From the NCBI GenBank assembly GCA_016839805.1, contig JAEOTO010000032.1, positions 192,001-256,000 of the forward strand: a stretch of 64,000 nucleotides of DNA, in the 5' to 3' direction. Shown here piece after piece: positions 16,592-42,244 of this stretch. Source of the DNA: Candidatus Hermodarchaeota archaeon (GTDB lineage Archaea > Asgardarchaeota > Hermodarchaeia > Hermodarchaeales > Hermodarchaeaceae). Below the pieces are notes generated by a model, which worked only from the letters and a program-made list of their open reading frames with translations, was not told the origin of the DNA and did not search any database. A program made the translations under genes and the position numbers. Every line of letters starts with the position of its first letter. Positions within the stretch are counted from its first letter, which is position 1.

Positions 16592-16688
16592 TGGCGCGGA
16601 GTAGGGGATTTGAACCCCTGCGACCAGATGGTCACTGGATAACCCGATTTATCTCGAGTCCAGCGCGTTACCGCTCCGCCAACTCCGC
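16592..16688 (-). tRNA. tRNA-Ser(CGA) with 12-nt intron at 37/38 (16641-16652)
   Basis: Cloverleaf with long variable arm, CTGGA-CT-CGA-G/A-TCCAG, encoded CCA. Confidence 0.92.
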
Positions 16689-23273: not shown

Positions 23274-23393
23274 TGGTAGCGGGGGGTTGATTTGAACAAC
23301 CGATCTCGGGGTTTCCCAAGGGGATTTATGAGCCCCGCGGGATATCAGGTCTCGGTGAGGAACACCAAGATATCCTGGCTACCCCACCCCGCT
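23274..23393 (-). tRNA. Initiator tRNA-Met(CAT) with two introns (D-loop 23344-23371; anticodon loop 23313-23326)
   Basis: A1-U72, consecutive G-C pairs in the anticodon stem, perfect BHB CAGG-ATA/CCTG-ATA; 78-nt mature form. Confidence 0.92.
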
Positions 23394-31702: not shown

Positions 31703-31807
31703 TGGTGCGGCTTCCGGGATTTTCGGTGACTTTACAAAGCAGTCAAGCATTCGAACCCGGGTCTCAGGCGTGGGAGGCCTGGGTCATAACCACTAGACAA
31801 AAGCCGC
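31703..31807 (-). tRNA. tRNA-Gly(CCC) with 30-nt T-loop intron (31720-31749)
   Basis: CAGGC-CT-CCC-AC-GCCTG; GGTTCGAA[intron]TCCC; encoded CCA. Confidence 0.9.
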
Positions 31808-36469: not shown

Positions 36470-39400
36470 CTAATTCGCTTCAATGGAAATAAATTCGTTG
36501 TTAATCTCACTTTCGAGGTCTTGGAAGTATTTCAGCATTACATCAAGATTCTCATGAGGTTGAACTTTCATACGTGCAATTTTTCCTACTACGGGGAGTG
36601 CTATAATCCGACGGAGTGCAGTTCCCTCATCAATTGCTTGCCGCATACGGTTCCAGAATTCCATGATAATCTTTAGCATCCAATAGCTTTTGGTCTCAGG
36701 GCAATAGGTATCAATGGGATGGAGTGCTGATTGCATTAGGTAGTCTTCCTTAACCATACGTGCTGCCTCTAAAATCGCACGTTCACGTTCAGGTAAAGCA
36801 TCTGGACCGACTAGTTGGACGATTTCACGGAGTTCTTTGTCATGTTGAAGAATTGATAGCGCTTCTTCAGTAATTTCGGGCCAATCATTTCCCATCTTGC
36901 CTTGGTACCATGTTGCTAATTCGTCTTTGTATAATGAATAGCTTTGTAGATAGTTAATAGCTGGGAAGAATCGCCTTGAAGCCATATCCTTATCAAGTGC
37001 CCAAAAGACCTTCGTTATCCTTAATGTTGACTGAGTAACTGGTTCAGAAAAGTCGCCACCTGCTGGTGAGACGGCTCCTGTGACTGTTACACTCCCTATT
37101 CGCGTTTCTGAGCCAAGTGTTTCCACACGGCCTGCGCGTTCATAGAATTCAGCTAATCGGCTTCCAAGATACGCTGGGTATCCCTCTTCACCTGGCATTT
37201 CCTCTAATCGACCAGAGATTTCACGTAGTGCTTCAGCCCAGCGGGACGTGCTATCCGCCATCAGAGCAACGTCATATCCTTGGTCTCTGAAATACTCTGC
37301 TATGGTAATTCCAGTGTATATTGAAGCTTCTCTAGCCGCAACTGGCATATTACTTGTATTAGCAACAAGAATTGTTCTTTCCATTAGCGATTTTCCACTT
37401 TTGGGGTCCTTAAGCTTAGGAAAGTCCTCAAGGACTTCTGTCATTTCATTTCCTCTCTCTCCACAGCCAACATAGACAATGATATCAGCATCAGCCCATT
37501 TCGCTAATTGATGAAGAGTTACAGTATTATGAAGTGTAACGGGTAGAACACCACCAACGAAATTATGAGTTTTTTCCACCGTGATGTCATAAACTGGAAC
37601 GTTTGTTTCAGTAATTTCTATTTTCTTAATTCGGTCAAAGTAGACTTGCTCGAGGATGTTCAAAATACTTTGTAGTTGTTCTCTTGTTTCTTGAGAGACT
37701 TGGGTATTGTTCGCATCTATTATCTCAAAGATAAGTCGTAATGTGTCGTTAGATGGTGTTTCGTCTAATCTTGTATAATTATCTAAGCGTAAACCACTCA
37801 TTTTTCTGAAAACATCGTGACCTTGAGGAGTTTTTCCTTCTGTTTTGAGAGAAAGTAATAGTTGTTGGTTAACAGGAACGACATCTAAGCCAACGAAGTG
37901 TGTAATTTCTTGTGATGCATATTCATATAACCGTTGAATTTTGATGTAGGGATATACTCCATTATCCTGCATGCATTTTGAAATACGTTCGGCAAATTTC
38001 CCATCAATTTCAATTACATACGAGTCATTCTTCTGTCTAGCCCGGTAAATCAGTCCAAGTCGTGTTAAGAGGTACCCTAAATCGCTATGAAGTTGATGGC
38101 TTGCCGTACTTAGTTGAAGGGAATATTTCGAGAAATGTCCATCACCAGCAATATATCCAGTAAGAAAGTGAATGAAGTAATCTTCTGGTGCAATTCGAAT
38201 ACATGAAGGAACACGAACGGTGTGGGATTTATCATCTCTTGGAAGATCAAGGGAGATTAGGAATTTCTTGAGGCTGGTATTTCGAAGATAGGCATATGGA
38301 GTTCTATCAGATGAATCTTGATCGATTTTTGGTTCTAGACCAAACACAATTAAGGATAATTCTTTGAAACGATACAAAATTTTTGGAGAAGAATTGTATA
38401 AGTAAATCCCTTGATATTTTCCTTTGAAATGTCCATCAGCCACAAATAATCCAAGCCATTCTGAAAGTTCCTTAGTAAGCTTGGTTGGAATGCGAAAGGG
38501 TTCTGACCCTCTTTCTGCTTTAACGAGAGCAACAGGTATTCGAGGTTTACCTACGAATTTCACTAATTTATCAAGAAATCTGAGCGTGGGTTTATTTTTT
38601 CCACTCTTATAACCAATGAGGACATCATAAGAAACTTCTAATTTCTTTGACAGAACTTTTAGTGTCATCTGTTTTTGGAGACTCTGAATCAACTCTTGCA
38701 TCATTTGAATAGCTTGTGGGTCGACTACACGCAAAGAGAGATCTATTTCATAAGAGTCAAATTGGGGGATTTGACCGGGTATGTTTAGTTTTCTTGGTAC
38801 GACGAGGTGATCACCTACATTTAATTGCTGAGCTTCAACTTCTTCGATTATTTCACCATTAAATCGGAAGAGCTTGTGAACTGGTGTAACCTCTACAGTT
38901 CGTCCAGAACGAGTAGTAATCTTCACAATCGCAGGAGTTGTTCCTCTGTATATGTGAGTTGCTTTAGCGGGAATGTATCTTGCTCCATCAAATGATAGGA
39001 TTCGAAGAGGAGTTTTCAGACTAATAAGTGTCTCATCTTCTGAATCTTGTTCAATAAATTCCCCTTGTTGTAAGAATTTCTTGTATAAGACTTGAATTGG
39101 TGTGGTGTCGCCATTCGAAAGTAAAACAGGAGTATCACCTGTCACACATTTTCCGGTGCCAAACCCTCCAGGAATGGCTCCAGTTCCACCTTTTGCAACT
39201 GGGAAGAAGGTATCAATGACACGTTGGCCTGTGTATAAGGGTACTTCGGTGCTAATTTTTGTTTTATAGGGTCGACCAATACGTACGGGCCATCGTTGGG
39301 TTAGTTTAATGTCACTTTTACCCGAAGGGGTTTGAATCTGTGCGATGACGTCCTTGATAGTGTAATCACCGCCATTGACTATCTGCGTTACTTTGCCCTC

Positions 39401-39868
39401 AATCCCAGGCGGTACAAGGATGCGGTGAAGAAATACGCTCGTTTCTTGTACCGTTCCTATTACATCACCAGCCGCGACTGTTGCACCCTTTGTGACAATG
39501 GGCTTAAATGTCCATGGTTTATCCTCTGGGAGCGGTGGTGCAGTAACTCCTCGTGTAATGAAGTCTCCGATCTGGTTTTTGATACTGGGGAGTGGTCGTT
39601 GAATTCCATCAAAAATAGAGCCAACTAAGCCTGGACCAAGTTCAACGTCAAGAGAAGTTCCAGTAGCAACAACCGGTTCTCCCGGTTTTAATCCAGATGT
39701 TTCTTCATAAACTTGAATATAGGCTCGATCACCTACAACTCGATTGACTTCACCAATTAATTCCTCTGTCCCAACTTTACAGACCTCAAACATAGTAACT
39801 CCAAAAAGTCCATCAGCTTCGATGAGTGGACCCGCAATTCGTTGTATATTTCCTGTTCGTGTAGACAT
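36470..39868 (-). CDS. atpA: A/V-type ATP synthase subunit A with intein
   Basis: [15 protein letters not shown]|[22 protein letters not shown]. Confidence 0.97.
37526..39148 (-). mobile_element. LAGLIDADG intein (541 aa) in the AtpA P-loop
   Basis: GK|CVTGDT...TPVHK...LGLFVADG...GYIAGDG...VYDITV...LHN|T. Confidence 0.95.
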
Positions 39869-39955
39869 AATCAACCGCCTTTTTTGAAACTCTGCTAACA
39901 AGTGTCACTATCAGCTATACTCAATTGACAAAAAGTTTATGGTAATTATCCAGTT

Positions 39956-41069: not shown

Positions 41070-41175
41070 TCAACCATACTTTAAGTGCTTTACGCAATTT
41101 AACGAAATATACTAGATTTCTAACAAAATTGACGAATTTTTATGAGAAAAAAAACGCTTTCAGGTAGAGGAAAAA

Positions 41176-41376
41176 TGGTGGGCCGACGGGGATTTTCCCA
41201 AGATGGCAATTACCATCTAGCTTTGAACCCCGGATCTCACGGATTGTCGCTATGGGTTTGGACTGACCGCATAGTCCCGAACCGCGAATCTTCGGCGGTT
41301 AGAAGGAACTGGTCCTTTCACTTATACCATGCTAGTCCGAAAAAGTGAATTTTTCGGTTATCTAGACCATCGACCC
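41176..41376 (-). tRNA. tRNA-Pro(CGG) with four introns
   Basis: Removing 41330-41359, 41291-41323, 41244-41275 and 41193-41221 gives a 77-nt canonical cloverleaf with CGG, G37 and CCA. Confidence 0.85.
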
Positions 41377-41404
41377 ATTGCTGCAGTCTACCGTCAAATA
41401 CTGA

Positions 41405-42244
41405 TTAAAATTTTTCTTCCTTGGTTTTTCTCCTCGATTGAAGGTCTTCGAGTCTTCCCAATGGCGTGTGATCAAGCAGAAAGATTTCCGAATTATTCAT
41501 TGAAAGGTGTCGAAACAAGGGGATTCCCAGATGATTTTCTGTTACCTCACTATTAAGGACGTGACCTCTAAGCAGATCAAGGAAAGCTGGTAAAATTAGT
41601 ACCCTCATATTAAGCAACTGATCAACGTTTGCCCTCCTTGAGTCAATAGTTGCTTTTCCCAACCATTTTTTCATTGCATCAATTATAGTTGGTTTCCATT
41701 TTGCCTTAACCCAAACCCGGTGAGTAGTAATCCGGTTTTTTAGAGATGAAATGGCAATAACTGGATGAATATGGGCCATTAGAAGACTACTACAATCGAG
41801 GATGTCTTGTGTGGGTTGGGCATGACCGTGAATAAGAAATACTTGCTGGGAATCAAAGCTGAGTTTGAAACCGGAGGCTGGGATAATCTGGGTGTCATCG
41901 GGAACGACCAATTCTATGTCGGCATCATGATTTCCCCGCACAATGGTTAATGATGCCTTTTGTTTAATTTGGTTTAACAATACAGCAACCTTATGGAACT
42001 CTTGCGGTGAAAAATCACGAATTGAGTGTTTTAAATCGCCTAAAATAATCACTTCACTAGGCTTGACATTGGCAACCAATTGTTCAAAACGTTGAATAAT
42101 CCGTTCTGCAAGGTTTATTGAATATTGATCTTTCTTAAAGAGAGTGCGCTCGTAACCGATGTGTAAATCTGCGACGACAAGGATACGACGCGATTTTTCT
42201 TGAAGTAATAGTGCGGGTTCGTTTTTTATTAGTTTCAAATGCAT
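41405..42244 (-). CDS. Metallophosphoesterase (COG1407-like, Lhr-associated)
   Basis: ADLHIG, LGDLKH, RGNHD, HGH, AHIHP, LPAF. Confidence 0.9.
   Translation of the reverse strand: MHLKLIKNEPALLLQEKSRRILVVADLHIGYERTLFKKDQYSINLAERIIQRFEQLVANVKPSEVIILGDLKHSIRDFSPQEFHKVAVLLNQIKQKASLTIVRGNHDADIELVVPDDTQIIPASGFKLSFDSQQVFLIHGHAQPTQDILDCSSLLMAHIHPVIAISSLKNRITTHRVWVKAKWKPTIIDAMKKWLGKATIDSRRANVDQLLNMRVLILPAFLDLLRGHVLNSEVTENHLGIPLFRHLSMNNSEIFLLDHTPLGRLEDLQSRRKTKEEKF

Follow-up and report, generated by a model that had tools for sequence, protein, structure and literature searches.

The window analyzed here, a 64,000-nt stretch of DNA corresponding to C22:192001–256000 of a 2.31-Mb, 50-contig MAG that is 87% complete, carries on its minus strand, between positions 41376 and 41176, an array of five exons separated by four introns (Table 1), as established by direct reading of the sequence. 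The initial annotation had proposed the same five exons, four introns and ten boundaries, and these were reproduced both in our reading of the sequence and when the joined product was analyzed with ARAGORN. The insertion positions of the introns were read off the ARAGORN cloverleaf of the joined product. Of the four junctions, the fourth alone is free to slide on sequence grounds, along a run of A, and it was placed at 59/60 because the T stem then serves as the outer helix of intron 4.

Table 1. Features of the tRNA-Pro(CGG) locus and of other loci referred to in the text; positions are those of the window unless the contig is given.
Feature	Position	Strand	Remarks
TAA stop of the upstream metallophosphoesterase gene	41407-41405	-	
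TATA-like A/T-rich element AAAAATTTTAAT	41404..41415	-	28-39 nt upstream of the mature 5' end; putative promoter
Exon 1, 17 nt	41360..41376	-	acceptor 5' strand, U8, G9, D-stem 5' strand, D-loop to position 17
Intron 1, 30 nt	41330..41359	-	insertion at 17/17a; CTAG/CTAG D-loop intron
Exon 2, 6 nt, TGGTAT	41324..41329	-	positions 17a, G18, G19, 20, A21, 22
Intron 2, 33 nt	41291..41323	-	insertion at 22/23
Exon 3, 15 nt	41276..41290	-	D-stem 3' strand, position 26, anticodon-stem 5' strand, loop 32-37 with anticodon CGG and G37
Intron 3, 32 nt	41244..41275	-	insertion at the canonical 37/38
Exon 4, 22 nt	41222..41243	-	position 38, anticodon-stem 3' strand, variable loop, T-stem 5' strand, T-loop to 59
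Intron 4, 29 nt	41193..41221	-	insertion at 59/60, T-loop
Exon 5, 17 nt	41176..41192	-	position 60, T-stem 3' strand, acceptor 3' strand, discriminator A73, CCA
Encoded CCA	41178-41176	-	
Five-T run	41171..41175	-	directly 3' of CCA; likely transcription stop, putative terminator
tRNA-Gly(CCC)	31703-31807	-	30-nt T-loop intron; 24.8 bits, below the Rfam cut-off
tRNA-Met(CAU)	23274-23393	-	two introns, 28 and 14 nt; adjoins an Ile/Ala tRNA pair
tRNA-Ser	16592-16688	-	12-nt anticodon-loop intron; anticodon CGA by the BHB-aware finder, AGA by ARAGORN without intron mode
A-type ATPase catalytic subunit gene	36470-39901	-	contains an intein
Other genes with a CTAG/CTAG D-loop intron	C22:30117-30253, C22:55031-55163, C22:41712-41820	+	

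The array is preceded by a TATA-like element that may act as its promoter. This A/T-rich box, which can also be written as ..ATTTTAAT, was conserved within the genus, and all 15 congeneric loci keep a ..ATTTTAAG/T block at the same distance upstream. The metallophosphoesterase gene that lies upstream ends inside the box with its TAA stop codon, so that it adjoins the tRNA gene with no spacer. No mobile element was found adjoining the tRNA gene in the neighborhood of the locus. Elsewhere in the window, the gene for the catalytic subunit of an A-type ATPase is interrupted by an intein whose homing-endonuclease domain is of the LAGLIDADG type (Pfam Intein_splicing and LAGLIDADG_3).

The joined exons make a product of 77 nt, which ARAGORN accepted as tRNA-Pro(cgg) with a regular cloverleaf and an encoded CCA. 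The acceptor stem has 7 bp, including one G·U pair, the anticodon CGG lies in a 7-nt loop together with U33 and G37, and the predicted D-loop after splicing reads AGAUUGGUAU. The core of a tRNA is present in the form of U8, A14, G18G19, A21, A73 and a G53-TTCAAAT-C61 T arm, with G53-T54-T55-C56, A58 and C61 in place. The unspliced locus was not called by ARAGORN, either with or without its intron mode, and it was absent from the output of the Rfam tRNA model (cut-off, 29 bits) when the window and the genome were searched. The same model gave scores of 42.3 bits for sister-genus orthologues with a single anticodon-loop intron and of 55.9 bits for the intron-less one. Removal of the four insertions restored the cloverleaf, as is demanded of BHB introns, by the ARAGORN analysis and by comparison with the less interrupted orthologues. 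Neither BLAST of the spliced product nor the BHB-aware finder described below turned up another credible tRNA-Pro(CGG) in the assembly; because the genome is an incomplete MAG, “single copy” is used here to mean that none other was found. Judged by its sequence features, the locus is a real tRNA-Pro(CGG) gene with four predicted small introns.

The junctions were examined against a BHB motif defined as a 4-bp central helix between two 3-nt bulges on opposite strands, with symmetric splice sites. In every genome, the four introns followed one common register, in which four exon nucleotides are followed by a 3-nt bulge and a hairpin, then by a 4-nt intron segment complementary to those exon nucleotides and by another 3-nt bulge, with the cut placed after bulge nucleotide 2 (marked by a slash in the bulges below). 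Introns 1 and 2 are of the HBh' type, without an outer helix. In intron 1, the CTAG at positions 12–15 of exon 1 provides the exon half of a CTAG/CTAG central helix with 4/4 Watson–Crick pairs, flanked by bulges AT/A and CA/T and an 8-bp inner hairpin. This helix takes up D-stem nucleotides 12–13, so that the D stem and the intron 1 motif are mutually exclusive in the precursor. The central helix of intron 2, TGGT/GCCG, has 4/4 pairs including two G·U pairs in the window copy, its intron half being RCYR in relatives, and is accompanied by bulges AT/A and AA/G and a 5-bp inner hairpin. Introns 3 and 4 are of the hBHBh' type, with the anticodon stem and the T stem, respectively, as outer helices. 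Intron 3 has a TTCG/CGAC central helix, bulges GG/A and AA/T and an inner hairpin; its central helix has 3/4 pairs in the window and in the nearest relative and 4/4 in the other ten four-intron genomes. Intron 4 combines a TTCA/GGAA central helix (three pairs and an A·G) with bulges AA/G and AA/T and a 7-bp inner hairpin, and the fourth central pair is A·G or A·A in 11 of 12 genomes. A flanking helix in the form of an inner hairpin was thus found in 4/4 introns. The 3/4 central pairs of introns 3 and 4 in the window assign these two to the “relaxed” BHB form and, with the two G·U pairs of intron 2, count against the proposed structure.

The locus was found in 14 of 14 sampled congeners and in four of four genomes of the sister genus, with synteny conserved on both sides. 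All four introns are present in 12 congeneric genomes (11 and that of the window), and three congeners have introns 2–4 only. In the sister genus, two genomes have the 37/38 intron only, one has a D-loop intron only and one (L019) is intron-less; in total, 19 orthologous loci carry 0, 1, 3 or 4 introns. The exons of the three single-intron sister-genus orthologues were identical to the predicted product at 77/77 positions and, like the ARAGORN call, uphold the 77-nt tRNA-Pro(CGG) cloverleaf that had been proposed. None of the four stretches of 29–33 nt occurs in the gene of L019, and any given one of them is lacking from two or more of the four sister-genus genes. As our measure of a heavily interrupted Asgard tRNA gene, we took four or more stretches, each 10 nt or longer, that a compact relative of matching anticodon lacks, and the gene has four of these. 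Across the 12 four-intron genes, identity was 99.6% in exon columns and 62.4% in intron columns. Exons 3 and 4 are invariant, and the sole variable exon column of the 77 is position 4, where U or C stands opposite G69.

Covariation was counted on the alignment for a structure comprising the four motifs and the acceptor, anticodon and T stems, in which 94% of the cells were paired. Compensatory double changes were observed in 16 pairs, compared with 8.4 ± 1.8 in shuffled alignments, none of 500 of which reached 16, and with 3–9 pairs in controls with slid partners. Nearly all of these changes lie within the intron hairpins, where they affect 5/8 pairs of intron 1, 3/5 of intron 3 and 7/9 of intron 4; the exon helices are constant except for the one-sided U/C change at position 4. 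Together with the geometry of the motifs, these compensatory changes corroborate the earlier assignment of an internal hairpin and BHB-type junctions to each intron. We further applied a BHB-aware depth-first finder that takes NCCA, acceptor closure, U8 and a T-arm signature as its anchors and whose parses were checked by ARAGORN. At the locus, the finder gave 84 admissible parses, every one with at least four excisions, and among the parses of 1.64 Mb of reversed decoy sequence none was accepted that had four introns or fewer. The predicted structure is far beyond chance. Taken together, these data make it highly probable that the locus is a single-copy, functional tRNA-Pro(CGG) gene whose four BHB introns would be spliced from a precursor. 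Going by the anticodon and the conservation of the exons, the product would be charged by prolyl-tRNA synthetase and take part in translation.

An exact-pattern scan (exon 4, gap, exon 5) retrieved 13 public records, mostly Hermodarchaeota or “Promethearchaeota” MAGs and including Candidatus Hermodarchaeum yapensis; two bear other Asgard labels. Among the genomes of the same phylum, G029 matches the published Atabeyarchaeia-1 genome in its tRNA coordinates. The relatives are thus Hermodarchaeota-type Asgard MAGs, indicating that the host is an Asgard archaeon and setting aside the Thermoproteales context implied by the initial annotation. The genome encodes RtcB (571 bits) and two EndA paralogues (C26:78271-78525 and C22:24271-24531 regions) that are 28% identical to each other. 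The 186-aa paralogue matched the catalytic alpha subunit of Aeropyrum pernix EndA (3P1Z_B, E = 1.7e-45) with the Tyr...His...Lys region kept. The 198-aa paralogue lacks the His in the aligned stretch, and its match to the A. pernix beta subunit was weaker than those to several other EndA chains. From the likeness to A. pernix EndA, we infer that the two paralogues would form an (alpha-beta)2 enzyme of broad specificity; according to one account, non-canonical introns are cut only by the (alpha-beta)2 and epsilon2 types of EndA (PMC5829648).

In the processing pathway that we propose, the gene would be transcribed as a precursor of ~200 nt with a short leader, from which BHB introns would be removed at the D-loop, the D-loop/D-stem border, the anticodon loop and the T-loop. 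Each intron would contribute a hairpin together with four nucleotides for pairing to the exon, forming the 4-bp helix and two 3-nt bulges. EndA would then cut after the second nucleotide of each bulge, and RtcB would ligate the resulting 2',3'-cyclic phosphate and 5'-OH ends. The two D-arm excisions would most likely be successive, with a ligation between them, the micro-exon being handled sequentially.

The micro-exon in question, exon 2, is distributed over two motifs. T17a serves in both, closing the 3' bulge of intron 1 as its third nucleotide and opening the central helix of intron 2 as its first; GGT completes that helix, and AT begins the 5' bulge of intron 2. The motifs of introns 1 and 2 therefore overlap by one nucleotide, T17a, and the junction motifs do share the 6-nt exon, as had been noted before; the sole base-pairing partner of exon 2 is intron 2. 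If both introns were cut before either ligation, exon 2 would become a free hexamer, suggesting that one D-arm intron is probably excised and its exons ligated before the other is cut. We tentatively suggest, as a possibility, that productive maturation would depend on the coupling of EndA cleavage to RtcB ligation, or on their strict alternation, within a single precursor. If true, the gene would offer a simple natural test case for how archaeal splicing avoids the loss of a micro-exon. As far as our literature search reached, no report of an internal tRNA exon shorter than 6 nt was found.

The initial annotation had gone further and taken the shared exon to imply ordered splicing. In the strict form of this reading, the order would be forced by RNA structure, intron 2 becoming recognisable only after the removal of intron 1, or the reverse. 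The sharing of T17a, by which simultaneous perfect formation of both motifs is impossible, is in its favor, and in the plain thermodynamic (minimum-energy) fold of the 201-nt precursor the intron 1 motif alone forms. An obligatory order has been described for closely spaced introns in genes of the Thermoproteales type (PMC8450103), and RT-PCR showed a preferred order in a three-intron tRNA of a red alga (PMC3728597). The cost of forming each motif was calculated in a constrained ensemble for every splicing intermediate, and amounted to 1.0–2.1 kcal/mol for intron 1, 2–3 kcal/mol for intron 3, 2.4–4 kcal/mol for intron 4 and 3.7–6.6 kcal/mol for intron 2, the highest cost, which also speaks for a fixed order, falling on intron 2. 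However, these costs were nearly independent of which other introns were already out; that of intron 2 was no lower after the removal of intron 1 (4.6 to 5.8 kcal/mol), and that of intron 1 stayed within its range throughout. Apart from T17a, moreover, each motif is self-contained in the primary transcript, and intron 2 is retained in the same geometry by the three congeners that lack intron 1, so that it does not depend on the latter. The nearly order-independent costs and the intact intron 2 of these congeners leave no structural basis for a fixed order, and we regard structurally enforced ordering as rather unlikely. The claim of ordered splicing is unproven: order dependence is absent from the folding energetics, and the free-hexamer argument is the only one that speaks for it.

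A different splice pattern, with other D-arm junctions that yield a product of 75–78 nt or with exon 2 discarded along with both flanking introns, might be read from the sequence, since the relaxed BHB search admits the 84 parses mentioned above and several of them were accepted by ARAGORN. Nevertheless, TGGTAT is invariant in the 15 congeneric genomes while the sequence varies on both sides of it, and ..AGAT-TGGTAT-GATT.. is contiguous DNA in the sister-genus genes, exon 2 being directly joined there to its neighboring exons. Exon 2 also bears the universally conserved G18, G19 and A21, and the alternatives all need at least four introns, making such a pattern very improbable. Scarcely credible at all is a decaying or silent pseudogene with junk insertions, CCG codons then being read by tRNA-Pro(UGG), as might be supposed from the failure of standard finders to detect the locus and from the imperfect central helices of the window copy: only 1 of 77 exon columns varies across 12 genomes against an intron identity of 62%, the intron hairpins are maintained by compensatory changes, the promoter-like box, the encoded CCA and the synteny on both sides are conserved, and the assembly yielded no other credible tRNA-Pro(CGG).

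For the four-intron tRNA-Pro(CGG) gene that we favor, the distribution of the introns among the orthologues bears on their gain and loss. Intron 1 is absent from three of 15 congeners and has a homologue in one sister-genus genome, introns 2 and 4 occur throughout the 15 congeners and are missing from all four sister-genus loci, and intron 3 has a homologue in two sister-genus genomes. When a tree was built from the two flanking proteins and rooted on the sister genus as outgroup, one of the genomes without intron 1 was basal in the genus, and the other two were nested within four-intron lineages (support, 100/99 and 95/98), so that intron 1 was lost at least once. The three genes without intron 1 (L009, L010 and L014) read CTAG-CT-TGGTAT, where the four-intron genes read CTAG-AT (window 41360-41365). 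As candidate routes of loss, we consider a deletion between the two CTAG repeats, which would explain CT in place of AT at positions 16–17 in the three genomes, a precise loss with a separate substitution, and gene conversion by an intron-less allele.

In the genome as a whole, 25 tRNAs scored above the Rfam cut-off, of ~46 expected. The BHB-aware finder recovered ~41 credible tRNA genes, of which ~13 were intron-less, 17 had one intron, nine had two, one had three (His-GUG) and one had four (Pro-CGG), or about one intron per gene. tRNA-Pro(CGG) is the sole credible four-intron tRNA in the genome; the only other four-intron parse, a “Leu-CAA” on C41, was rejected on inspection. Parses with five or six introns, obtained at ~25 sites in the 2.3-Mb genome and at four in the 1.64-Mb decoy, were discarded as artefacts with long “introns” and poor motifs, the decoy giving parses of the same kind. 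Part of the excess over the decoy ends on genuine tRNA 3' halves, for example, at the CCA of tRNA-Thr(GGU) (C22:27193). Across the whole genome, the finder did not recover tRNA-Phe, initiator tRNA-Met or tRNA-Ile-CAU/UAU, and it missed Cys-GCA and Arg-UCU, both of which were found by ARAGORN or Rfam. Further hidden or unusually built tRNA genes probably remain in this genome. CCA is encoded in nearly all of its detected tRNAs.

Two intron types recur among these genes. A CTAG/CTAG D-loop intron occupies one site shared by tRNA-Val(UAC) and all three tRNA-Pro isoacceptors (Table 1), and three of these four introns end in ..GGACTAGnn; the Pro isoacceptor genes were not clearly revealed by BLAST of the spliced product and were recovered by the BHB-aware finder. 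A T-loop intron of the form TTCR-AA/..RGAA-AA/T, cut after AA, is shared by five genes, those for tRNA-Arg(CCU), tRNA-Lys(CUU), tRNA-Gly(CCC), tRNA-Leu(UAG) and tRNA-Pro(CGG), and a related intron lies one position on, at 60/61, in tRNA-Glu(CUC). At both recurrent sites, the exon half lies in a self-complementary conserved tRNA sequence (CTAG and TTCGAA). Shared descent, copying between genes and convergence are all candidate origins of these recurrent introns.

Genomes of the sister genus and complete Asgard genomes were considered as a source of compact reference tRNAs and dropped because they had too few detectable tRNAs, 11–35 per genome, as few as or fewer than the present genome. Three complete or near-complete genomes of the same phylum (G024, G029 and G039) gave 11–14 tRNAs each with the Rfam model at E ≤ 1e-5, which directly shows the extent to which tRNAs of these lineages are under-reported by standard searches. 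For the annotation of such genomes, this under-reporting is the practical point of our analysis.

The initial annotation had given three introns, in Thermoproteales, as the described maximum per tRNA gene, and “up to three” is indeed the figure stated in the account of tRNAscan-SE 2.0 (PMC8450103). The idea that four introns exceed the known maximum does not hold, since four-intron tRNAs are already documented, which removes the novelty of the number. Valentin-Alvarado et al. (2024) reported introns in 92–95% of the tRNA genes of three complete genomes of Atabeyarchaeia and Freyarchaeia (PMC11291895). Among these, Freyarchaeia Arg-TCT and Ile2-CAT have four predicted and four observed introns, and Freyarchaeia Leu-GAG and Atabeyarchaeia-2 Trp-CCA were raised to four by curation (PMC11291895, Supplementary Data 4). 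The gene described here resembles these in its Asgard host and its four short introns, many of theirs being at non-canonical sites, but it belongs to another Asgard class and another isoacceptor, their Pro-CGG having one intron in three of three genomes (PMC11291895). If the begin and end columns of the table are correctly read, their internal exons measure ~7–9 nt, compared with 6 nt here (PMC11291895). Whereas that table holds single-genome predictions, the four-intron state of the present gene is seen in 12 genomes and accompanied by covariation.

A second study, the census of Goswami et al. (bioRxiv 10.64898/2026.10.13.758758, October 2026), describes up to five intervening sequences per Asgard tRNA gene and a mean of 2.2 per gene in three heavily burdened families, the Freyrarchaeaceae, Jordiarchaeaceae and Atabeyarchaeaceae. 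In that work, insertions in the D-arm are frequent and often missed by tRNAscan-SE, BHB-compatible sites are preferred, gains are repeated and most genomes have two EndA paralogues (bioRxiv 10.64898/2026.10.13.758758). Its method is comparison with compact relatives, which is also the method by which the present gene was confirmed, and Hermodarchaeia are not mentioned in its main text (bioRxiv 10.64898/2026.10.13.758758). With about one intron per tRNA gene in the present genome, the four-intron gene is an outlier in a moderately interrupted set.

Outside the Asgard archaea, Thermoproteales have up to three introns per tRNA gene, and Pyrobaculum calidifontis has 71 introns in 46 genes (PMC8450103). 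The present gene shares with these the combination of canonical and non-canonical BHB introns, a heterotetramer-type EndA (predicted in our case) and close spacing, but it belongs to another phylum, and the stated maximum for theirs is three (PMC8450103). The nuclear tRNA-Ile(UAU) gene of the red alga Cyanidioschyzon merolae, a eukaryote, has three introns, in the D-stem, at 37/38 and in the T-loop (PMC3728597). It therefore resembles tRNA-Pro(CGG) in the three arms affected and in its BHB motifs, and there the intermediates and a preferred order were seen experimentally; in contrast to the present gene, its introns number three, and it lacks a pair of D-arm introns with a micro-exon between them (PMC3728597).

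Set beside these systems, the tRNA-Pro(CGG) gene is a well-supported further example of the heavily interrupted Asgard tRNA genes and not a record, and it leaves the picture of archaeal splicing capability unchanged. It adds a documented case in Hermodarchaeia, a lineage not singled out by the published accounts, with support from 19 orthologous loci and not from a motif finder alone. The orthologues with 0, 1, 3 and 4 introns form a small natural series for the study of intron gain and loss, and, as far as can be read from sequence, these loci may also illustrate the handling of a 6-nt exon that lies between two adjacent BHB motifs.
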